Shown one piece after another: positions 30-13,549 of a stretch of 13,877 nt of DNA. This DNA comes from Thermoplasmata archaeon. GTDB lineage: Archaea; Thermoplasmatota; Thermoplasmata; GCA-020350865. The notes below the pieces were generated by a model. That model saw only the letters and a program-made list of their open reading frames with translations. It did not search any database and was not told where the DNA came from. Position 1 is the first letter of the stretch; each line of letters opens with the position of its first letter. Both the position numbers and the translations under genes were made by a program. The stretch spans positions 2,007,953 to 2,021,829 of the forward strand of contig CP070751.1 in NCBI GenBank assembly GCA_020348445.1, written 5' to 3'.

Positions 30-590
30 TCAGGTCCCCAGAAGTTTAACTTCTTTTACTGTGATGTATGTGGGTCCCTCTCTTGAGAGCACGCTCTTCT
101 TCAGCTTAATTCCCTCCACCTTTTGTGTACCAAAGACCACATCCTGGTATTCTTTTAGAATGTCACCTAGGATTTGCTTGTTCCTTGGACCTTTGACCCT
201 GGCCAAAGTAACATGGGGTCGAAAGCCTTTTTTCTCTCTTTTGAATCCATGTTTTGAAAGCTCCGAATTCAATGCTTTGGCGATCTTTACCAGTGAATCA
301 GCACCCTCCAAACCCACCCAGATTACCTTCATATAATTGGGATTTGGAAATGCCCCTGTGCCTATCATCTCCATAGTAAAAGGTTCCACACCCTCGATGC
401 TCAAAGACATAGCACTTTCGATATCCCCGATCTTAGCCTCGTCTGTGTCCCCAAGGAATTTTAAAGTCAGATGAATGTTCTCAGGTTCTACAAGTTTGAG
501 CTGGGCATTGCTTTCTTTTAGTTTGTTCCAGAATTCCTCGAGTTTGGTTCCCACTTCAACTTCAACTGCTATAAAAGCCCTGAATGTCAT
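30..590 (-). CDS. thpR: RNA 2',3'-cyclic phosphodiesterase (2H phosphoesterase, LigT/ThpR family)
   Basis: Two HxT motifs (IHLTLKFLG, PHVTLARVK), N-terminal RAFIAVEV and GAFPN motifs. The start is placed at the ATG at 590 (MTFRAF), because the 13-aa extension to 629 in the ORF track precedes the family N-terminus. Confidence 0.93.
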   Translation of the reverse strand: MTFRAFIAVEVEVGTKLEEFWNKLKESNAQLKLVEPENIHLTLKFLGDTDEAKIGDIESAMSLSIEGVEPFTMEMIGTGAFPNPNYMKVIWVGLEGADSLVKIAKALNSELSKHGFKREKKGFRPHVTLARVKGPRNKQILGDILKEYQDVVFGTQKVEGIKLKKSVLSREGPTYITVKEVKLLGT

Positions 591-2336: not shown

Positions 2337-5300
2337 TCACCTCATAAGTTCGTCCATTATGTCTTTTATTCCCCTCAGTTGTTCCATATCACCGTCCCAA
2401 TCCTCAAGAATCTCACCATATTTGGATTCGATTCGAGAGACCATATTTTCCAGGGTCTCTTCCAGATCCTGCGGCTCATCCCCCACCAAGACAACAGCTA
2501 TGTAGATATGCTCCCCCTTCTTTATGTGTATCACAGAATCTCCGAAATCCAGCCTCCTCAGGCCGTATTTGCTTTTCTCCCTAAATGAATCCCTGATAAA
2601 TTCCTGGACCGCGGTGAGCATTGAGCTTAATATATCGTCATCCACATCAGGTCTGAGTTCTTTAGAACGATGCGCCAGGGGAAGGCCAGAGTTGGAGATG
2701 ATAAATATATCCTCGATTGTTGCCTTCTTTCTTTTTAGAATCATGAATAAAACCAATGAACAAATAACTGCTATGACAACCGCCAATATCAAAAATATAT
2801 TCAAGGATTCCTCTTCCTCCTCCTTTTTAGGGGGCTTGACCTCGACCTCCCAGCTTTGCATCATGAATGAATCGTTCTCATCAGTTACCTTCACCGTCAG
2901 GTTATATGTCCCATGTCCATAGGAAGAGCGGTCAAAGGTAAATGAAGATCCTCTGACTCCGGTATCATTTCCGTCGATGAACCATTCGTAGGTGAGGGCA
3001 TCGTTATCGGGATCTGATGCTGTGATTGTAAACATCATGGATTCTTCATTTGAATTTAGTCTGGGTTTAAGGTTCATTGGCTCGTACTCGTCAATTATCG
3101 GAGCGCGATTTGCCTGGGTAACAATGACTATCCATCTGTGTTCAACACTGGCACCATTTCCATCAGATACATTCACAATTACCTCATGGTCTCCTGCGGT
3201 TCCGAACGCAGGCTGATAACTCCAGAACGGGATATCCTCTCTTTTTATTTGTCCATCCAAAATCCAATCAACAGAAAGGGAATCCCCATCCTCATCAAAA
3301 TGCGATATATTGAAATCAAGGGCTATTCCTTCCTCTACAGTGGGATACATCATTAAGGGTAGGTAAAATGTTATAACAGGTTTGTCATTGACATTCTCAA
3401 CGATTATTGTGAAGGTATGGCTGTCTGTTCCATTGTTTCCATCAACACATGATACAGTGACCTGCCAGCTTCCGGCTTCATGATATGTCGGGGTACCGTA
3501 AAGCTCACCAGTTATTGGATCAATTGATAGCCAGTTTGCTGTTGTATCAAGGGACCAAATTAGAGAATCTCCGTCGTCATCATCGGCTTGATAGATAATA
3601 GAATATAGTTGATCTTCGAAAGCACTTAAAACATCTGTGGTTGTTATCATTGGGTCATCATTTGTATTGAAAACATTAAGGGTGAAGTTGCGCCATCCCA
3701 AGCCCCCGAATTCGTCTTCTGCAGTAACATTTATCCAATAATAACCTATATGCTCGTTTCGAGGTATGCCAAAAAGACCTCCTGTTGTGGAATTTATTGA
3801 AAGCCATTCTGCATTTGAAGCAAGGCTCCAGATGATGTTTCCATCTCCATCGTCGGAACTAGCAAAGTCCACATAATATGAAGTGTCTTCGTTTATCAAC
3901 GTAATTTCATTTTGAGAAATGACTGGATCACTGTTTTTAACTGTTAGTGTGAAGTTGCTGAAATCCCATCCACTATGACCGTCATAAACAAATATATTGA
4001 CAATCCAATCCTCTATTTCCAGGTAATTAGGCGTTCCAGAGAGCACACCGGTTTGGGAATCTATTGAAAGCCATGTGGCATTGGTAACAAGACCCCAGGT
4101 GATATCACCCTGGCCGTCATCAGAACAGTTGTAATCCACTTGATAATATACATCCTCGGAAGCTGTGAAAACATCGGTTGTATTTATGATCGGCTTGGTG
4201 TTGATCACCCATAAGTTGAACTCGGAATAGGATATACCGCCGTGATTGTCTCTTACCGAGATATTGACTGGATCCACTCCAACATGGGAGTTGTTTGGTG
4301 TTCCGAAAAGCTCTCCTGTGACACTGTCAATGTTAAGCCAGGAGGGGCCATTTTCAAGGGTCCAGATCGTATTTGGATCATCATCTGAATCGTAATCTCT
4401 ATAATATTGTGAGTCCTCCAACGCGAGACCCACATTCGATGTTAAAATCTCAGGTGCTCGATTCAGAACCTCTAATAAAAACGAGAACTCGTCATGGCCG
4501 CCATTCACATCCGTTACTTTGATTAGGAATGAGTAAACACCCACATTATCATTCGAGGGAGTTACGGTAAGATTTCCTGTTGAAGGATTTAGGGTTATCC
4601 ACGTTTGCGAAGTGTTGATAGACCAAGTAAGAGGATTCCCCTCTTTGTCTGTAGCATGGAAGGTGTTATAATAAAATGAATCTTCATCAATCTGTATGTT
4701 TGAGATGGGGTCTGTGATGACGGGATCATCATTTTCAAGAGTTATAACAACTGTCTGACTTCCGTATGTTAGATCCACTTGGATTTCTTCCCAACAAGTT
4801 GTGTTGAATACTCTTACATTATGCGGGTTGGTTGAATTGTAAAACAAAGTTTCATTTTGTGAATAACCCAAACACACTTCCCATCTTAACCAACCATTTG
4901 CGTCGGTGGTTCCATTAATAACTTCATTGGCATCTGGCCATAATACGCTTATATTTACACCTGGATAAGGTTGATCCAGCCCATCTCTAACTTGTACATT
5001 CAAGTACCACATTACCACAAGAACTGTAGAAGGATCAATGATATTGACATCTGTGAATGAAGTATTAATTAAATATAGTAAGGAATTCTGGCTTATATCT
5101 ATATCGGAAGTTGTTTGTGCATTTAATGTGGAGTTTACAATCCAAACATTTGAACAACTGATTCCCATTACTGCAGGGATGATTCCGTTCGTGCTGATAG
5201 AAAGGGATTCGAACAAACAGTCCACTGTTCTATTTAGTACCACTCCAGCACCCCAGGCACCGATTACGTTCATTGTGAAATTTGTAATTGAAATATTGTC

Positions 5301-7997
5301 AGAGGATAATGTAGAAAATCCAAAACTTCCAAGGCCATTTAGATCAATGGAGATATTGGATAGCCTAACATAATGTGCATCGCCGAGAAATATCCCGTCT
5401 ATGAAGTCGGCATTTCCTGTAATAGTTAGATTTTCTATGATTGTGTAATCAAAAAATCCCACCAATTGAAGACCCGTACCTGCACTATTCAAATCCACGT
5501 TATTTCCATTAACCAATGAATTAGTAAGGTTGTATAGATCAATTGCAGTGCAATAATCAACATATGAAAAGATAGTGTTACCCCATACTTGACATCTATC
5601 CATTTCCAAGAAATCCAAGCCTGCACCTGGAGCATTTAATGAAACGGAGTTATTATTCACGGTATAATCGCTGCTTTCTGCAAGAAATATCCCGATATTC
5701 CATCCTTGCGTGCCATACATATTTACTTGATTTCCCTCTATAATAGATCCTGGGGAATACCCAGCGTATATTCCTATATCATCATTATGGGTCGTTGATA
5801 TATCCACATTATTGTATAATACTTGAAGATTGGGACAGTTCCAGGCCCTGATTGCGCATGAAAAATCAGAGTACCCATTTATATTAAAAGTGCTGTTTTT
5901 GACAATGGAATCAACAGAATCAGCAAAAATAATTCCTATAAAGCTTCCCTGAATATATGCATGGTTGAATACGGCTGAGTCCGTCTCAACATATATTCCC
6001 TTGTCATGGAATGCAGGCGCATCCCACCCGCAGTCAATTATATATGAGTTTCTTATTTCTATAACCGATCCGTCCCAAGCATAGAAGGAGAATACATAAT
6101 CATTAGGACTCCCATCATCGGTATCATAAGGACTATCGGTAATTACACTGGCATCATCAACTGTATAGTTGTCCCAATCATTATCATATAAATGAAGCTC
6201 ACCCCCCCATGTGACATTTAGATGGTACTGGCTGTTCATCTGGGTTGCATTAAGCATTATGGTGCAGTTATGCAAAATAAGGTTGCCTGTTGCATTGATT
6301 GTGATATTTCCATCCATTAAGAAGGTGGTATCCCAGTATTCTTCTGTGGTATCTATCCACCAATCACCTTTTCTTTGTGCTTTTGAGACACCCATGGGTT
6401 GGAGAGTGGCTTTTATGTTCCGATTCTGATTCATTGTAACTTCGGTATTCCACGGATCATATCCGCTATAGGTCACTGTTATGTTATGCGGAGTTTCTGC
6501 TTGTGAGCTGCTCTCGTAATGGACCACTTCTGTAAGAGGTAGATACCGAATCTGGCCGTTTGCATCGGCTGGGCCGTTGAATATCGTATCTCCTGTGCTG
6601 TTTTTAATCTGGATAAATGCTCCAGGTAATAGAGCACCCTGCCAGTCTTCAACTGTGAGTTCCAGGAAATGCTGAACTGTAAAATCTGACAGGGCATCGT
6701 CCACATCATATGTGATAAATTGAGTGTTTAGAGCAGTAACATGTGAATCTGAATCAACATCTATACCTGTCTGAGGTCCAAAAATAGTGGTGTTGACTAT
6801 CATCACATCATAAGTATTATCACAATTTATTCCATAGTTATTTATGCCAGATGTGACTGTGATGGTGGTGTTCTCTATCAAAATATCATGGGCTGAGAAA
6901 CCAATAGCTATTGCACGGCAGTTATCTTGACTCACAGTAAAGTTGTTATTCTTTACTGTAACATTATCTACCCCAAAAATACCTAATGCGCAAATATTTA
7001 TTCCTGAGGCAATTACTTCGTTATCGATTACATTAATATAACTTCCCCCTGAAAGCTGAATACCCTCACTAGCCTGATCCCAACCGCAAATCGTATTTGA
7101 GGTTATGTTAACATATCCGCTGTAGAGACGGATGCCTTCGGAACCTAAACCTGTGACATTTATGGTATTTTGATGAAGTTCGTTCCATTCCCCTCCCCCT
7201 GCGATTCTTATTCCTTCGGAGTTCCCTGAAATGACATTAATGGTATTTCCTGCTACCTTATTTCTCCAACATCCACTTGTGAAGGATATTCCATAATCTC
7301 CGCTGCTGTTAAGATCTATTATATTGTTGTAGAATAACGAATCCGAAGTCGATTGAATAAAGATGCCGTCATCATCAAGATCGGTCAAGGTACAGTTCTC
7401 GATAATCGTTCCCAAACTTGCATCCACATTGATTCCTCGATAGCCCCTTGAAATCGAGCAGTTTCTAATCACTGCATTATCTGTATGAATATACAATCCC
7501 CTCTCTTCGATAGAACCTTGACTATAGCCAACTTCAGATACTGCGCTGTTGATCATGGTAAAGCTCGAGCTTTGATGGACATAAAATCCAAACCTATGAT
7601 CTCCATCTGTATTGTTGCTCGTGATATTGCATCCATCGTAGGTTGTGATAGGGTTATTGTCGTAATCCGAAATCAATAGTATTGCACCATTATTCACATG
7701 AATATATGTTGTTAGATTCCCTGTATTGTTCATTCTGATTGTGACGTTAACGAGGGTTAGTGAAAAACCCCCCAATACAGTGATGTTCCCGTTCACAATT
7801 ATCGTCTGATTTCTGTATATGGCGTTGGAATCAACATCCCAGTCCCCGTCCCAAAATATGGTTGCATCCTCGATTGCAGGAGGCTGTGCAGCAGATGCCA
7901 TTTCAATGGGCAAGTTGTCTTCAAGGGGAATTATGATGACTAGAACTGGTAATATAAGAATCCATACTAATACGTGCACTGCATGTCGTTTCCTCAT
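2337..7997 (-). CDS. Large single-pass cell-surface glycoprotein/adhesin: signal peptide, 2x (parallel beta-helix + carboxypeptidase-regulatory-like Ig domain), 5 cadherin-like/putative Ig repeats, 2 PKD-like repeats, TM helix, cytoplasmic longin-like domain
   Basis: The ATG at 7997 has AAGGTG 7 nt upstream and opens a signal-peptide-like MRKRHAVHVLVWILILPVLVIIIP. GIxI/NxTI beta-helix repeats; NxxP...ED...W..WL.I...TG.L.GTP repeats; hydrophobic LNIFLILAVVIAVICSLVLFMIL followed by KRKK; about 55 N-x-S/T sequons by manual count. The ORF track extends to a TTG at 8117. Confidence 0.85.
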   Translation of the reverse strand: MRKRHAVHVLVWILILPVLVIIIPLEDNLPIEMASAAQPPAIEDATIFWDGDWDVDSNAIYRNQTIIVNGNITVLGGFSLTLVNVTIRMNNTGNLTTYIHVNNGAILLISDYDNNPITTYDGCNITSNNTDGDHRFGFYVHQSSSFTMINSAVSEVGYSQGSIEERGLYIHTDNAVIRNCSISRGYRGINVDASLGTIIENCTLTDLDDDGIFIQSTSDSLFYNNIIDLNSSGDYGISFTSGCWRNKVAGNTINVISGNSEGIRIAGGGEWNELHQNTINVTGLGSEGIRLYSGYVNITSNTICGWDQASEGIQLSGGSYINVIDNEVIASGINICALGIFGVDNVTVKNNNFTVSQDNCRAIAIGFSAHDILIENTTITVTSGINNYGINCDNTYDVMIVNTTIFGPQTGIDVDSDSHVTALNTQFITYDVDDALSDFTVQHFLELTVEDWQGALLPGAFIQIKNSTGDTIFNGPADANGQIRYLPLTEVVHYESSSQAETPHNITVTYSGYDPWNTEVTMNQNRNIKATLQPMGVSKAQRKGDWWIDTTEEYWDTTFLMDGNITINATGNLILHNCTIMLNATQMNSQYHLNVTWGGELHLYDNDWDNYTVDDASVITDSPYDTDDGSPNDYVFSFYAWDGSVIEIRNSYIIDCGWDAPAFHDKGIYVETDSAVFNHAYIQGSFIGIIFADSVDSIVKNSTFNINGYSDFSCAIRAWNCPNLQVLYNNVDISTTHNDDIGIYAGYSPGSIIEGNQVNMYGTQGWNIGIFLAESSDYTVNNNSVSLNAPGAGLDFLEMDRCQVWGNTIFSYVDYCTAIDLYNLTNSLVNGNNVDLNSAGTGLQLVGFFDYTIIENLTITGNADFIDGIFLGDAHYVRLSNISIDLNGLGSFGFSTLSSDNISITNFTMNVIGAWGAGVVLNRTVDCLFESLSISTNGIIPAVMGISCSNVWIVNSTLNAQTTSDIDISQNSLLYLINTSFTDVNIIDPSTVLVVMWYLNVQVRDGLDQPYPGVNISVLWPDANEVINGTTDANGWLRWEVCLGYSQNETLFYNSTNPHNVRVFNTTCWEEIQVDLTYGSQTVVITLENDDPVITDPISNIQIDEDSFYYNTFHATDKEGNPLTWSINTSQTWITLNPSTGNLTVTPSNDNVGVYSFLIKVTDVNGGHDEFSFLLEVLNRAPEILTSNVGLALEDSQYYRDYDSDDDPNTIWTLENGPSWLNIDSVTGELFGTPNNSHVGVDPVNISVRDNHGGISYSEFNLWVINTKPIINTTDVFTASEDVYYQVDYNCSDDGQGDITWGLVTNATWLSIDSQTGVLSGTPNYLEIEDWIVNIFVYDGHSGWDFSNFTLTVKNSDPVISQNEITLINEDTSYYVDFASSDDGDGNIIWSLASNAEWLSINSTTGGLFGIPRNEHIGYYWINVTAEDEFGGLGWRNFTLNVFNTNDDPMITTTDVLSAFEDQLYSIIYQADDDDGDSLIWSLDTTANWLSIDPITGELYGTPTYHEAGSWQVTVSCVDGNNGTDSHTFTIIVENVNDKPVITFYLPLMMYPTVEEGIALDFNISHFDEDGDSLSVDWILDGQIKREDIPFWSYQPAFGTAGDHEVIVNVSDGNGASVEHRWIVIVTQANRAPIIDEYEPMNLKPRLNSNEESMMFTITASDPDNDALTYEWFIDGNDTGVRGSSFTFDRSSYGHGTYNLTVKVTDENDSFMMQSWEVEVKPPKKEEEEESLNIFLILAVVIAVICSLVLFMILKRKKATIEDIFIISNSGLPLAHRSKELRPDVDDDILSSMLTAVQEFIRDSFREKSKYGLRRLDFGDSVIHIKKGEHIYIAVVLVGDEPQDLEETLENMVSRIESKYGEILEDWDGDMEQLRGIKDIMDELMR
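2835..4733 (-). repeat. Seven tandem ~87-95 aa Ig-like repeats (5 cadherin-like/He_PIG-type + 2 PKD-like) inside the surface protein
   Basis: Repeat starts on the - strand at 4733 (NDDP), 4463 (NRAP), 4202 (NTKP), 3935 (NSDP), 3668 (NTNDDP), 3395 (NVNDKP) and 3116 (QANRAP). The first five share ED..Y, DxD, W...WL.I and TG.L.(G)TP; the last two share D.D.D.L...W..DG. Confidence 0.85.
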
Positions 7998-8004
7998 GCT
8001 AAGG

Positions 8005-8010
8005 CACCTT
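8005..8010 (-). promoter_or_regulatory. Shine-Dalgarno site for the surface protein
   Basis: AAGGTG on the - strand, 7 nt upstream of the ATG at 7997. Confidence 0.6.
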
Positions 8011-8224
8011 TTACTATCAAATATTCGAAGGAACGACTGGTCCTTCTTTTTATAGACCTGAGATAAACGGCTATCGATATTTTTCCTATATAATAGAATT
8101 ATTGATATTATTCTCAAATAAAAGAATAACAGAAATCATGGTAAAAGCACCATTTTCTAAAGAAAATAGATGTTCAATAGGCGAAAGATAAAATAGAGCT
8201 AACAACAATAACGCATTATCAACT

Positions 8225-8234: not shown

Positions 8235-9071
8235 ATGAGGAAAATAATATTATCGCTTGTAACTGGATGGATACTGGTATCTGCGGCCCTTTTCAGTCTA
8301 TGCGTATTCAGCTCGGAGAAGGAAATAAATGCCTCTGCCGATGAATGGGGGGATGCCCCGGATTTCACATTACGTGATATCGAGGATAATTTGTTTACCT
8401 TATCAGACAATCTGGGTAAGGTCATTCTAATCGATTTCATGGCCACATGGTGCGGTCCTTGCCATACCGAAATGGAAGAGTTAGACAAAATTCATGACGA
8501 AGTCGGCAACGGAATCGTCATGATCTCAATAGATGTGGACACCTCTGAGACTGAGGAGGATGTTGTGAACTCTTTCGAAGATTATGTATTTAAATGGATA
8601 TTTGCCATAGATACAAATTCTGAGGGTGTATCAAATCAATATGAAATTCAATATATACCAACAATATACATCATCGATACAAACGGAGACATTTCTTATT
8701 CATCTACTGGTATTACAGAAGAAGACACATTAATGGATGAATTAGAGGAGGCCGGGTATAAAAAATCAAGTGAGGGCGCTGGTGGAAGTGGAGGTGATCT
8801 GATGCCTTTCATATTGATAGGCATCATAGCTATCATTGCAGTATTAGGATTAATTTTTGCATTAGTCCTTCTACCAAAGAGTGGTGGGGCTCCACAATAT
8901 CCCCCGCAATATCAACAACAATATCAATCCACTCAACCCCAGTACACTCAGCAATACCAACAGACTCCCTCACAATACCCTCAACAACAAATAGCAACTT
9001 ATTGTCCTTATTGTGGTAATTTAATACAGCCTGGATGGCAGGTATGCACATACTGCAAAAATCCTTTATAG
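8235..9071 (+). CDS. Membrane-anchored TlpA/ResA-like thiol-disulfide oxidoreductase with C-terminal Q/P/Y-rich linker and zinc ribbon
   Basis: Signal-peptide-like N-terminus; APDFTL..., GKVILIDFMATWCGPC and IPTIYIIDTNG (TlpA/AhpC-TSA pattern); TM LMPFILIGIIAIIAVLGLIFALVLLP; QY/PQ low-complexity stretch; CPYCG...CTYC. Confidence 0.85.
   Translation: MRKIILSLVTGWILVSAALFSLCVFSSEKEINASADEWGDAPDFTLRDIEDNLFTLSDNLGKVILIDFMATWCGPCHTEMEELDKIHDEVGNGIVMISIDVDTSETEEDVVNSFEDYVFKWIFAIDTNSEGVSNQYEIQYIPTIYIIDTNGDISYSSTGITEEDTLMDELEEAGYKKSSEGAGGSGGDLMPFILIGIIAIIAVLGLIFALVLLPKSGGAPQYPPQYQQQYQSTQPQYTQQYQQTPSQYPQQQIATYCPYCGNLIQPGWQVCTYCKNPL
8893..8990 (+). repeat. Low-complexity Gln/Tyr/Pro coding repeat
   Basis: Recurrent CAATAT/CAATAC/CAGTAC (Gln-Tyr) units encoding PQYPPQYQQQYQSTQPQYTQQYQQTPSQYPQQQ. 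Confidence 0.7.
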
Positions 9072-9104: not shown

Positions 9105-10319
9105 TCACCCCTTGTTTTTTCTAAATTCGCGAATCAACACAACAATCAGGGGTATCATGATAAAGATCGAAATTATCGTGATAATGTAAAGAACAGCCAT
9201 ATCCCATTTCATTCCCATTATCATCAAGGTCAGAGGCTGCTTGTGGTCCTGGTAGTTGATAAGAACCTCTGAGACGTCTCTTACATCATCCACATGAATG
9301 GTCACAACCCAAGTAAGCCCGTTCCACCATCTTGAGAATCCCATGAACATATCACTTTCTCGTCCATCAGATAAAATATTACCAATTATCGTTATAGATT
9401 TATTCTTGGGTTTTATGGAAACATAAAGGACTTTAGTTTCTGGATCATATTTATAGCCCTCTTCCATTCTCTGGTCATTGCTGATATTCTCTACATGCTG
9501 GTAGTGGCTGTTGTTTGATCGGTACTTAACCGACAGATTATCAAAATTAAATTGTTCCAGATCAAATTCAAGTGTTATCGGCACATCCCAAATTTTAGGA
9601 TCTGAGCCGGTATAATCCAGTTCGAAAACCATTTTTGTATCGTTACTATTTTGCGAATTAAAGTAAACAGTGGTATGATCTACGATATAATAATACGATC
9701 TTACCTCCCCCCATGTGGCATACCAGACATTATTATTTGAGTCGATGTATTTAAGAGATTCCGAGTCCAATTTATCGTTTTGGTGGAACATGCAATCTGC
9801 CCAAGATCCATTTTGCTCTGCCTTATGAAGATCACTTATGTGGGCTTCACCCTCGGTCACCTTTCCGCCTAGACGAGCTATGTTCATCCAATCCATCTCA
9901 TCCTCAGGTGCGCTCGTTTCATTTATGATTAAACCACATATAGAATCAAAAAAACAATTGCCAGCTATTCTGAATCCGGTATCGTAAGCTGCCTTCATGA
10001 CATTTTTGTTGGGACTGGAATAGGGATATGCAATGCTCAGGCATGTGGTTCCCCATCTTGAGGTGGACTTCGTGTTATCCTCGATTAAGGCCAGTGATTC
10101 CTTGGTCCATGTAAGAGCTTCGTCGTAACTGAAATCCTTTGTTTTGACATGGCGTGCTCCGTGGGAACCGAGCTCATGACCCTGTTCTATAGCCTGGTTC
10201 TCATGATAATTTATGTCGCTATCTATGTAATATTCATTTATTATGTATATACCTAGATTCACACTGACTATGATTAATATGATGCACAGAATTATAGCGA
10301 CTACTTTCTTTGAGCCCAT
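9105..10319 (-). CDS. Polysaccharide deacetylase-like protein (CE4/NodB family), membrane-anchored at both termini, with permuted motif order
   Basis: GHELGSHGARH (metal-binding His motif), SIAYPY, DCMFH and VWYATWGEV. The DD motif (VVTIHVDD) lies near the C-terminus. Hydrophobic helices at both ends. The start is placed at the ATG at 10319 (MGSKKVVAII); the ORF track opens at a TTG at 10376. Confidence 0.75.
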   Translation of the reverse strand: MGSKKVVAIILCIILIIVSVNLGIYIINEYYIDSDINYHENQAIEQGHELGSHGARHVKTKDFSYDEALTWTKESLALIEDNTKSTSRWGTTCLSIAYPYSSPNKNVMKAAYDTGFRIAGNCFFDSICGLIINETSAPEDEMDWMNIARLGGKVTEGEAHISDLHKAEQNGSWADCMFHQNDKLDSESLKYIDSNNNVWYATWGEVRSYYYIVDHTTVYFNSQNSNDTKMVFELDYTGSDPKIWDVPITLEFDLEQFNFDNLSVKYRSNNSHYQHVENISNDQRMEEGYKYDPETKVLYVSIKPKNKSITIIGNILSDGRESDMFMGFSRWWNGLTWVVTIHVDDVRDVSEVLINYQDHKQPLTLMIMGMKWDMAVLYIITIISIFIMIPLIVVLIREFRKNKG

Positions 10320-10397
10320 CAAGGGTAATATCAGGGTGTCGATATTTATTGGTTTCTGGATGCGATAAGATAACAATTGGTAATAGAATTTTGATTT

Positions 10398-11865: not shown

Positions 11866-12765
11866 ATGAATCAAAACATATTAGATACCCTCCGATCAAA
11901 ACTTCTCGAAAGAATAAGCTTCGATACATTGCCTGAATCGGCCTTAAAACGAAGTGCTGCTTTGAATACCTGGGGAACGAATGCAATAGAGGGAAGTACG
12001 ATAACCAGGGCTGAGGCTGAAAGGATATTGTTGGAGGAACGTAGCGTTGCAGGAAAACCAATTCGGGATGTCATGGAAACAATACAACATGAACGAGCAT
12101 TCCGAAGCCTTTTAAACAGGCGAAAAAGAGAAATTACACTCGAAACGGTACTTGAACTTCATGAAGAAGTATTCCGTGGAATCCTGTACGATGCTGGACA
12201 GTGGCGGAGGGTAAATGTCCGTATTAAAGGAGCAAAGTTTGCACCTCCAAGAATGGAAAAGGTTGTAAAGGAAATGAACGATTGGATGAATGAATACCGA
12301 AAACGGGATATCGAGGGGGAAGACACTTTCGAATTAGCTTCATGGATGCATTATAAATTCGAATGGATTCATCCATTTGGGGATGGTAACGGACGGGTAG
12401 GAAGACTCCTTTTGAACCTGCATTTTCTTAGAAGGAATTGGCCTTTCGTTCATGTCCTGCCACCAAATCAGAAGGAATATTTGAAGGCATTAAATGCTGC
12501 ATCCGGTGGAGATTTTTCTCTTTTTGTGAATCTAACGAAAACACTTATGGGTGCAAGCCTTGTGGATTTGTTGGATCAGGTAGGAACGAAAAAGGATAAG
12601 CTAATTACCTTAAAGAAGGCGGTGAAGATTTCCCCTTATAGTGAGAAATACCTTGCTCTTAGGTGTAAGCAAGGTGAGCTACCAGCTTTAAAATCAGGGA
12701 GGGAATGGAGAACAAGTGAGCGGGCACTTGGTCTCTATAGTGATTTGGTTGGTAGGAAGGGGTAG
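11866..12765 (+). CDS. Fic/Doc family protein (class II, N-terminal inhibitory helix) with C-terminal HTH domain
   Basis: Complete catalytic motif HPFGDGNGRVGR (12370-12405); inhibitory-type motif TNAIEG (11977-11994); C-terminal LITLKKA...YSEKYLALRCKQGELPALKSGREWRTSE resembling excisionase/MerR-like HTH. Confidence 0.92.
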   Translation: MNQNILDTLRSKLLERISFDTLPESALKRSAALNTWGTNAIEGSTITRAEAERILLEERSVAGKPIRDVMETIQHERAFRSLLNRRKREITLETVLELHEEVFRGILYDAGQWRRVNVRIKGAKFAPPRMEKVVKEMNDWMNEYRKRDIEGEDTFELASWMHYKFEWIHPFGDGNGRVGRLLLNLHFLRRNWPFVHVLPPNQKEYLKALNAASGGDFSLFVNLTKTLMGASLVDLLDQVGTKKDKLITLKKAVKISPYSEKYLALRCKQGELPALKSGREWRTSERALGLYSDLVGRKG

Positions 12766-12911: not shown

Positions 12912-13208
12912 ATGAAAACGCTAGAAGAGATCAAAAAAATGCTTAAAGAACATGAGAAAATCCTCAAAATGAAATATAAGACCAAAAAGATAGGGATCTT
13001 TGGTTCTTATGTGAGGGATGAGGAGAAGGAAAGAAAGAGCGATCTCGACATATTGGTTGAGTTTGATGACGGTATCACCCTTTTGAAATTTATAGAGATG
13101 GAGAATTATTTAAGCGATCTTTTGGGTATAAAAGTGGATCTCGTTATGAAGAAAGCACTGAAGCCCAGAATCGGAGAAAATATATTAAAAGAGGTTTTGT
13201 ACATATGA
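12912..13208 (+). CDS. mntA: Minimal nucleotidyltransferase (MNT), antitoxin of a HEPN-MNT (type VII) TA pair
   Basis: 98 aa; IGIFGSYVR...SDLDILVEF; LSDLLGIKVDLV; ATGA overlap with the downstream HEPN gene. Confidence 0.88.
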   Translation: MKTLEEIKKMLKEHEKILKMKYKTKKIGIFGSYVRDEEKERKSDLDILVEFDDGITLLKFIEMENYLSDLLGIKVDLVMKKALKPRIGENILKEVLYI

Positions 13209-13549
13209 AAAACGAGTACAAGGATTATATTGAGGATATTTTAAATTCCATATTGAAAATCGAGGATTTCATAGACGAGCTGACCTTTGAGGATTTTAAA
13301 AGTGATGATAAAACTGTTTTTGCGGTAATAAGAGCTCTTGAGATTATAGGGGAAGCAGCCAAAAAGATACCGCAACCATTGAAAGGTAAATATTCTCAAA
13401 TTCCCTGGCGTGAAATATCTGGTATGAGAGATAAATTGATACACGGATATTTCGGGGTAGATCTAAAAGTTGTATGGGATACGATAAAAATCGATATACC
13501 GGACCTCAAACCGCAAATTAATAGGATGCTTTCAGATTTGGATGAATAA
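13205..13549 (+). CDS. hepT: HEPN-domain (DUF86/HepT-like) RNase toxin
   Basis: 114 aa; AVIRALEIIGEAAK; IPWREISGMRDKLIHGYFGVD carrying RX4HXY (R-DKLI-H-G-Y, 13427-13450); translationally coupled to the MNT gene. Confidence 0.9.
   Translation: MKNEYKDYIEDILNSILKIEDFIDELTFEDFKSDDKTVFAVIRALEIIGEAAKKIPQPLKGKYSQIPWREISGMRDKLIHGYFGVDLKVVWDTIKIDIPDLKPQINRMLSDLDE

Follow-up and report, generated by a model that had tools for sequence, protein, structure and literature searches.

The minus strand of positions 9105-10319 in a 13,877-nucleotide stretch of a Thermoplasmata archaeon genome (assembly GCA_020348445.1, contig CP070751.1, positions 2,007,953 to 2,021,829; the whole stretch is hereafter called the window) encodes a protein that is best explained, from its sequence and structure models, as an extracytoplasmic, membrane-tethered and metal-dependent carbohydrate deacetylase of the CE4/NodB type whose sequence is circularly permuted. 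Our core claim, which we consider likely, is that the circular permutation is real and that the CE4 enzyme bearing it is probably active and exposed on the outside; the permutation taken alone appears highly probable. The analysis further supports that the break point, in loop 1 of the CE4 barrel, has not previously been described, that membrane helices lie at both new ends, and that the protein belongs to a small unannotated family of Thermoplasmatota. An earlier note on the same DNA had proposed a natural circular permutation with the break between beta2 and alpha2. Non-collinear matches in BLAST and hidden Markov model (HMM) searches, a collinear alignment of the re-joined sequence, the structure models and the conserved motif order all sustain this proposal.

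Sequence evidence for the permutation

The open reading frame (ORF) is laid out as a hydrophobic helix, motifs 2, 3, 4 and 5, a beta-sandwich, the segment WWNGLTWVVTIHVDD-helix-QPLTLMIMG and a second hydrophobic helix, and its CE4 motif order is 2-3-4-5-1 instead of the canonical 1-2-3-4-5. The positions given in the earlier note for GHELGSHGARH (10181-10149), AYPY (10031-10020), MFH (9791-9783) and the Asp pair (9290-9285) agree exactly with the translation; motif 4 (DEMDW, residues 140-144), which it did not list, is also present. The Pfam profile PF01522 (Polysacc_deac_1) matches residues 42-118 with 28.5 bits against a cut-off of 23.1, at profile positions 53-123/124 only. Because this match covers only the second half of the profile, and residues 1-39 hold only the hydrophobic helix and a short linker, the motif-1 half is missing from the N-terminus. 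The earlier note expected two partial Pfam hits in the wrong order, but Pfam returned a single one; the moved piece is detected only by an HMM of a closer subfamily, which does give two out-of-order matches.

This subfamily came from an exhaustive search of a representative library, in which about 20 further relatives contain an internal region matched by query residues ~40-310. At least 14 of them carry the signature [WFY][WY]N[GND][LM]xW....[HRS]xDD...PLT some 50 residues before the motif-2 histidines (P0009, P0010, P0012, P0013, P0016-P0024 and P0027, here called WWNGL-type relatives), and the Asp pair is present in 14 of 14. They resemble the window protein in this signature and at 26-36% identity over barrel and sandwich, but differ in having the canonical order and in being mostly embedded in proteins of 500-1600 residues. 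All are metagenome-derived; many exceed 1,000 residues, many are large proteins that bear a hydrophobic segment at the N-terminus, and some also have a C-terminal transmembrane-like (TM-like) segment. No longer homologs were found in an index of 5.8 billion proteins, while the representative library does contain them.

In BLASTP with the window protein as query (P0002), residues 49-311 match residues 261-539 of the unpermuted P0013 (1e-44), and residues 325-368 match, out of order, residues 202-244 (3e-10); the same non-collinear pattern is obtained against P0021. When an HMM is built solely from the 14 unpermuted relatives, each of the seven permuted proteins is matched in two pieces that stand in the wrong order. 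In the window protein, HMM positions 52-341 correspond to residues 37-307 (225.7 bits) and positions 2-48 to residues 324-371 (41.1 bits), an arrangement that, on these sequence scores, lies far beyond chance. The pieces show neither duplication nor loss, the cut falling at HMM positions 49-51.

When the C-terminal segment of each permuted protein was moved by script in front of the body, the re-joined sequences gave a collinear, almost gap-free alignment with P0009, P0010 and P0012, in which even the loop at the break agrees in length. Against a profile of canonical CE4-plus-sandwich proteins (built from P0029, P0030, P0035, P0037 and others), hhalign returned 99.3% probability for the family in native or re-joined order. 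The alignment covers 198 columns from motif 2 onward in native order and 251 columns after re-joining, with iHVDDv placed on TFDDg; re-joining was tested with both hhalign and HMMER. A profile search of PDB sequences gave only weak motif-2 matches (best 3qbu, E 0.011).

Structure models and active site

The AlphaFold model of the window protein (predicted local distance difference test score, pLDDT, 87.5; predicted template modelling score, pTM, 0.83; 27-row alignment) places the tail that bears VVTIHVDD, residues 337-367, as strand-helix-strand at pLDDT ~95. A distorted (beta/alpha) barrel fold is recovered by VIA-align with Z 8-10.8 over model residues 34..210-305. The stretch covered by solved CE4 chains begins at model residue 34 and ends near 210 (Z 8-10.8), and a stop at that point is what a sequential aligner would be expected to give if beta1-alpha1-beta2 has been moved. 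Generic TIM barrels align across residues 48..370 (7uek, Z 9.2) and 34..369-373; these alignments, running through residues 369-373, indicate that the tail closes the barrel. Foldseek found no match of the whole model in the PDB at E <= 0.001 and no CE4 enzyme among its top rows, probably owing to the TM helices and the permutation, and VIA-align did recover CE4 structures.

A structural comparison forms the stronger bridge to the canonical motif 1, the profile alignment being weak when taken alone. Aligned with solved CE4 enzymes, the model of the unpermuted relative P0021 (pLDDT 85.4) reaches Z 13-18.5; the alignments start at residues 58-65, which form the WNNLSWALAFHVDD strand. Against SpPgdA (2c1i) the first aligned model residue is 65, placed on chain residue 268; if beta1 is ungapped, Asp72 and Asp73 of P0021 would coincide with Asp275 (catalytic) and Asp276 (metal-binding) of SpPgdA.

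By sequence, the CE4 catalytic apparatus is complete and invariant in the close family except for the motif-3 Arg. The motif-1 equivalent HVDD (342-345) is invariant, homologous to the Asp-Asp strand of the unpermuted relatives and aligned on TFDD. Motif 2, H(S/T)xxH in canonical form, reads H53-GAR-H57; motif 4, DxxD(W/Y), reads D140-EM-D143-W144; and motif 5, LxH, reads M177-F-H179. Motif 3, canonically RxPY, is AYPY, with Pro and Tyr kept and Arg replaced by Ala, as also in the canonical sandwich-bearing relatives P0029 and P0035. The tail strand would bring Asp344 (base) and Asp345 (metal ligand) beside His53 and His57 (metal) and His179 (acid), and a normal CE4 site would be rebuilt. We infer that the window protein has metal-dependent deacetylase activity and that its domain lies outside the cell.

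The permuted family

The permuted family comprises seven clusters at 90% identity including the window protein. The other six, found in the index of 5.8 billion proteins, are 389-426 residues long and 37-63% identical to the window protein; they derive from separate JGI, Logan and NCBI assemblies, one being named as a Thermoplasmata archaeon metagenome-assembled genome (MAG). The motif order is common to all seven, and the residues invariant among them are H53, H57, Y98-P99, W144, D175, H179, W331-W332-N333, H342-V-D344-D345 and P362-L-T364, which include the five catalytic residues D344, D345, H53, H57 and H179. The earlier note had named homologs of the same order as a check, and these independent clusters answer it, with the Asp pair unchanged throughout. 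One member lies on a 3.58 Mb Thermoplasmata MAG chromosome (L003) and has the same order.

The gene is a single copy in its own genome (5.16 Mb, one contig), in which no paralog or unpermuted copy was found. Four genomes of the same genus gave no match to the protein, and a search at class level gave only one weak match among 400 genomes.

Proposed origin of the permuted order

The ancestral unit consisted of a lead strand, beta1 (with the Asp pair)-alpha1-beta2, the rest of the barrel and a beta-sandwich, an order that survives in at least 14 relatives. In the window protein beta1-alpha1-beta2 follows the sandwich, and the break in the chain lies between beta2 and alpha2, in loop 1 of CE4 nomenclature. 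A related layout is known from BoPDA (4dwe), in which the CE4 domain is inserted in a beta-sandwich, with residues 63-85 before and 381-441 after the barrel (PMC11713874). The unpermuted P0021 has this layout, with a strand at 53-55 (FLGIP) before beta1 and with 4dwe aligning from model residue 50. The lead strand of the ancestral layout seems, as in BoPDA, to be paired with the sandwich at the C-terminal side. As a consequence of this sandwich layout, the old N- and C-termini appear adjacent, which is the geometric condition for a circular permutation.

Side-by-side termini of this kind could be joined by tandem duplication and subsequent trimming. In the window protein the strand MFMGF (325-328), the equivalent of the FLGIP lead strand, directly follows the sandwich, and the junction keeps a complete unit end (HMM position 341) and a complete unit start (HMM position 2). 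Judged from the sequence, such a junction is exactly what tandem duplication with trimming would predict. P0031 and P0038 each contain a tandem duplication of the canonical CE4-plus-sandwich unit, their two HEIGSHTxxH motifs being separated by 320 residues, and represent the kind of intermediate that a duplication model of circular permutation needs. In a tree on 329 columns the unpermuted WWNGL-type proteins form one clade (95/90 support), and a single clade of permuted proteins is not rejected by the approximately unbiased (AU) test (p 0.10); a single origin of the permutation is possible, being neither shown nor rejected by these data.

Predicted membrane anchoring and topology

The earlier note had also proposed that the enzyme is tethered to the membrane twice. 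TM-like segments do lie at both new ends (residues 6-24, hydropathy 3.12; residues 378-396, hydropathy 2.99), and this part of the proposal stands by hydropathy; the tether itself is less certain at the first helix, which may be a cleaved signal peptide. Basic residues flank both segments (KK at 4-5, REFRKNK at 397-403) and would fit an N-in/C-in topology under the positive-inside rule. Seven N-x-S/T sequons lie between the two segments, which fits an extracytoplasmic domain.

It is rather unlikely that the permutation is real and the protein held by its C-terminal helix alone, the N-terminal stretch being a cleaved Sec signal peptide and a two-helix clamp being absent. The C-terminal helix is kept in seven of seven members and the N-terminal one in six, P0007 having no such segment as called; the N-termini of distant marine relatives (see below) are classically signal-peptide-like, ending in VVA/D or AAE, and in several unpermuted relatives a hydrophobic segment at the N-terminus is accompanied by a TM-like one at the C-terminus. 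In the close family, however, the hydrophobic run extends over about 20 residues without an evident small-x-small cleavage site, and residues 2-32 are modelled as one long helix, both of which argue against such cleavage.

In CE4 enzymes loop 1 begins just after beta2 and helps to shape the substrate cleft and its negative subsites (PMC5855634). In the doubly anchored protein the cut would lie in this beta-to-alpha loop on the catalytic face, which would be replaced by two membrane helices on linkers of 6-8 residues. A cut on the catalytic face together with such short linkers would set the active site close to the outer membrane surface and facing it. This geometry, derived from barrel topology and CE4 loop nomenclature, is offered as a tentative proposal about which we remain somewhat doubtful. 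With a membrane-facing site, acetylated glycans near the membrane would be suitable substrates, for instance lipid-linked oligosaccharides, lipoglycans or nascent polymer.

Alternative explanations

A very improbable alternative to the permuted enzyme is a CE4 remnant truncated at its N-terminus and serving as a pseudoenzyme or glycan-binding protein, in which the Asp-Asp segment is an unrelated juxtamembrane module that resembles motif 1. Consistent with such a remnant, the Pfam match is confined to the second half of the domain, motif 3 lacks its Arg, the alignment with the canonical CE4 profile gains no score through the Asp pair, and a large marine sister group of the same layout has lost its catalytic residues. 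By contrast, the segment is significantly homologous to the stretch before motif 2 in 14 unpermuted relatives, and in the modelled one the homologous stretch superposes on beta1 of solved CE4 enzymes. Moreover, a barrel without the segment would be two strands short, and none of the five catalytic residues varies within the close family.

Several observations nevertheless weigh against our interpretation of a permuted, active enzyme. The hhalign extension through motif 1 came without gain in score (152 versus 155), which makes the link to the canonical TFDD mainly a transitive one, via the unpermuted subfamily, and that subfamily itself has no PF01522 match in the three proteins checked (P0013, P0016 and P0021). 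The predicted placement of the tail in the barrel draws on homology, secondary structure, confidence values and alignment ranges. Apart from the absence of the motif-3 Arg, the motif-4 Asp varies; and cleavage of the first helix would remove one anchor. A tandem intermediate was not found inside the WWNGL subfamily, and the permuted proteins, once a canonical outgroup is included, come out as a grade, not a clade, with long branches involved. Finally, neither the window nor L003 has a conserved neighbourhood of glycan genes.

That the gene order is an artefact of assembly or gene calling, such as a chimera or a collapsed tandem repeat, has a negligible probability: the reading frame runs without interruption, the genome has one copy only, and an assembly artefact of this genome is unlikely because the six further clusters from separate assemblies, including the L003 member, share its order and length.

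Gene and feature coordinates

The coding sequence, read from the translation, starts with ATG at 10319. The minus-strand frame is open over 9105-10376, from a TTG at 10376, which has no support from homologs as a start; they support the ATG (MGSKK...), their N-termini starting at an equivalent M-x-x-K-K. An AT-rich AATAAATAT element about 25-33 nucleotides upstream of this ATG (window 10320-10360, minus strand) was noticed by eye as a candidate archaeal TATA box of a leaderless transcript. Coordinates of all features are collected in Table 1.

Table 1. Features of the permuted CE4 protein; positions refer to the window, residues to the translated protein.
Feature	Residues	Position	Strand	Basis and remarks
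Whole coding sequence of the permuted CE4 deacetylase	404 aa + stop	9105..10319	-	homolog-supported ATG
N-terminal hydrophobic helix; signal anchor or uncleaved-looking signal peptide	~6-28	10236..10304	-	hydropathy, AlphaFold helix, 6/7 members
Barrel part A: alpha2, beta3, remaining strands and helices; motifs 2-5	40-215	9675..10202	-	Pfam, structure alignment, hhalign
Motif 2, H53-G-A-R-H57, two metal-binding His	53-57	10149..10163	-	invariant 7/7; aligned on HTVTH of canonical CE4
Motif 3, A97-Y-P-Y100, canonical Arg replaced by Ala	97-100	10020..10031	-	family alignment and hhalign
Motif 4, D140-E-M-D143-W144	140-144	9888..9902	-	W144 invariant; D143 replaced by G/A in 2/7 members
Motif 5, M177-F-H179, catalytic acid His	177-179	9783..9791	-	H179 invariant in family, nearly invariant across 27 relatives
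Beta-sandwich domain; last strand MFMGF (325-328)	216-328	9336..9674	-	DSSP strands in model; aligns with 4dwe_A sandwich
Relocated beta1-alpha1-beta2 unit: RWWNGLTWVVTIHVDD, helix, QPLTLMIMG	329-369	9213..9335	-	HMM, BLASTP, AlphaFold, TIM-barrel alignments
Motif 1 equivalent, H342-V-D344-D345; putative catalytic base and metal-binding Asp	342-345	9285..9296	-	invariant in family; aligned on TFDD
C-terminal transmembrane helix	~374-396	9132..9200	-	hydropathy, AlphaFold helix 374-403, kept in 7/7 members
Short basic tail REFRKNKG, putatively cytoplasmic (positive-inside)		9108..9131	-	sequence read directly
AlphaFold model: helix	2-32			
AlphaFold model: barrel elements	40-215			
AlphaFold model: all-beta domain	216-328			
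AlphaFold model: strand ending in HVDD	337-346			
AlphaFold model: helix	349-356			
AlphaFold model: strand	363-367			
AlphaFold model: helix	374-403			

Degenerate marine relatives

A large group of marine Thermoplasmatota proteins shares the permuted order at 21-25% identity; these distant relatives are encoded on long contigs of marine metagenomes (L004-L014) and include P0025 and P0033. Their N-terminus resembles a signal peptide, and a TM helix stands at the C-terminus. Where the close family has HVDD, these proteins (L004:7941-9104, L013:7938-9122, L006-L014, P0025 and P0033) read (V/A)GHH; they have also lost the second His of motif 2, motif 3 and the His of motif 5, with a conserved CHG and the GHH remaining. 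From their sequences, they would be either pseudoenzymes or carriers of a re-invented metal site. That the Asp pair disappeared jointly with the other motifs fits a single active site common to them all, although this loss is one event only.

In the ESM Atlas, Thermoplasmatota clusters of 181, 80 and 335 members resemble the protein over its whole length with TM-scores of 0.69-0.75; the Atlas clusters, of 80-335 members, are all labelled hypothetical. With these clusters and the marine relatives, the permuted topology is thus widespread and old, and its catalytically intact form is the rare one.

Beside the degenerate gene a divergent PlsC-type acyltransferase gene (PF01553) is found on the minus strand (L004:7148-8020, L013:7142-7918). 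Further genes conserved around it on both contigs are those for thymidylate synthase, dihydrofolate reductase (DHFR, annotated on L004 only), a saccharopine-dehydrogenase-like protein and a class I Trp/Tyr-type tRNA synthetase (PF00579). This synteny is weak evidence, as the contigs may be close kin.

Gene neighbourhood

The neighbours of the CE4 gene in the window are genes for a TlpA-like redoxin, an S-adenosylmethionine (SAM) methyltransferase, a giant beta-helix/Ig surface protein, a Fic protein and MNT-HEPN proteins. The surface protein (2337-8117, minus strand; 1926 residues) combines a right-handed beta-helix with He_PIG, Big_9 and PKD domains and lies on the same strand as the CE4 gene, about 1 kb past its 3' end. 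The redoxin gene (8235-9071, plus strand) is convergent, ends 34 bp from the CE4 stop codon and encodes a thioredoxin/redoxin-fold protein with a C-terminal zinc ribbon. At 1.5-3.2 kb upstream, on the opposite strand to the CE4 gene, are the Fic-domain gene (11866-12765, plus strand) and an MNT/HepT (nucleotidyltransferase-HEPN) toxin-antitoxin pair (12912-13208 and 13205-13549, plus strand).

These neighbours are not conserved at L003, where the surrounding genes are unrelated housekeeping genes and a Wzy_C-like gene lies 2.3 kb away. The substrates suggested in the earlier note, N-glycans and extracellular polysaccharide, find no pointer among the genes of the window, and a metagenome scan for loci of relatives retrieved distant relatives only.

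Implications

Circular permutation of an enzyme barrel is rare, and in CE4 the break point of PgaB and IcaB has been the only one documented so far. The present family adds a second tolerated break point, in a loop that forms the cleft. Since both motif orders coexist in related proteins, and the domain-insertion layout brings the old termini together, the group offers a natural test of how permutations come about. Half of the domain escapes annotation pipelines, and permuted proteins are labelled hypothetical; as a result, counts of CE4 enzymes in Thermoplasmatota, and judgements of catalytic competence made from a missing motif 1, may be wrong.

A further reading, which we regard as unlikely, is that the permutation is adaptive and not neutral. 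It would have produced a membrane-interfacial CE4 enzyme whose groove lies against the outer leaflet and which, in wall-less or S-layer-poor Thermoplasmatota, deacetylates glycans that are lipid-linked or embedded in the membrane, for example dolichol-linked N-glycan precursors or lipoglycans, and the abundant marine GHH relatives would be a repurposed, non-hydrolytic derivative. We know of no CE4 enzyme described with a membrane-interfacial way of reaching its substrate. If the membrane-facing geometry is true, the family points to an unstudied step in the tailoring of archaeal envelope glycans.

Comparison with known CE4 systems

In PgaB, the motif-5 residue His55 precedes Asp114/115. Circularly permuted CE4 domains are established for the deacetylases of poly-beta-1,6-GlcNAc (PgaB, IcaB and BpsB), with the shuffling point inside loop 5 (PMC5855634, which cites Nishiyama 2013 for the permuted subfamily); the permutation is also mentioned in PMC4817252. 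The earlier note knew of no CE4 protein with such a topology. As far as permutation itself is concerned, this novelty does not hold, permuted CE4 enzymes having been described (PMC5855634); the break point and the anchoring are new. Full-text literature searches found neither a CE4 protein that is broken between motifs 1 and 2 nor one that has TM helices on both sides.

The window protein shares with PgaB, IcaB and BpsB, which are extracytoplasmic enzymes modifying surface polysaccharides (poly-beta-1,6-GlcNAc de-N-acetylases), the CE4/NodB barrel and a natural circular permutation of its five motifs. It differs from PgaB and IcaB in the position of the break, which is in loop 5 there, with motif 5 before motif 1, and here in loop 1, at HMM positions 48/52, giving the order 2-3-4-5-sandwich-1. 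It differs also in the beta-sandwich between motifs 5 and 1 and in the hydrophobic helices at both termini. In alignments of the unpermuted relative's model with PgaB and IcaB (Z 9.4-9.8), the matched part of these enzymes starts no earlier than the strand with motif 1.

The best structural match is BoPDA (BACOVA_03992, 4dwe), with Z 10.8 for the permuted model, residues 33..305 of which align to residues 171..451 of 4dwe_A, and Z 17.7 for the unpermuted relative. Both proteins combine a CE4 barrel with a beta-sandwich; in BoPDA a lead strand of the sandwich stands before the barrel. BoPDA, however, is bacterial and soluble, has the canonical order and uses a His-Asp dyad (PMC11713874), and in the window protein the sandwich is contiguous in sequence, the barrel being the split domain.

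The canonical enzymes SpPgdA (2c1i), SlAxeA (2cc0) and Bc1960 (4l1g) match the fold from alpha2 onward with Z 7.9-8.2. In comparison with them the window protein has another motif order, no motif-3 Arg and HVDD in place of TFDD, but the metal triad (Asp-His-His), the base (Asp) and the acid (His) of canonical CE4 enzymes are all present in its sequence.

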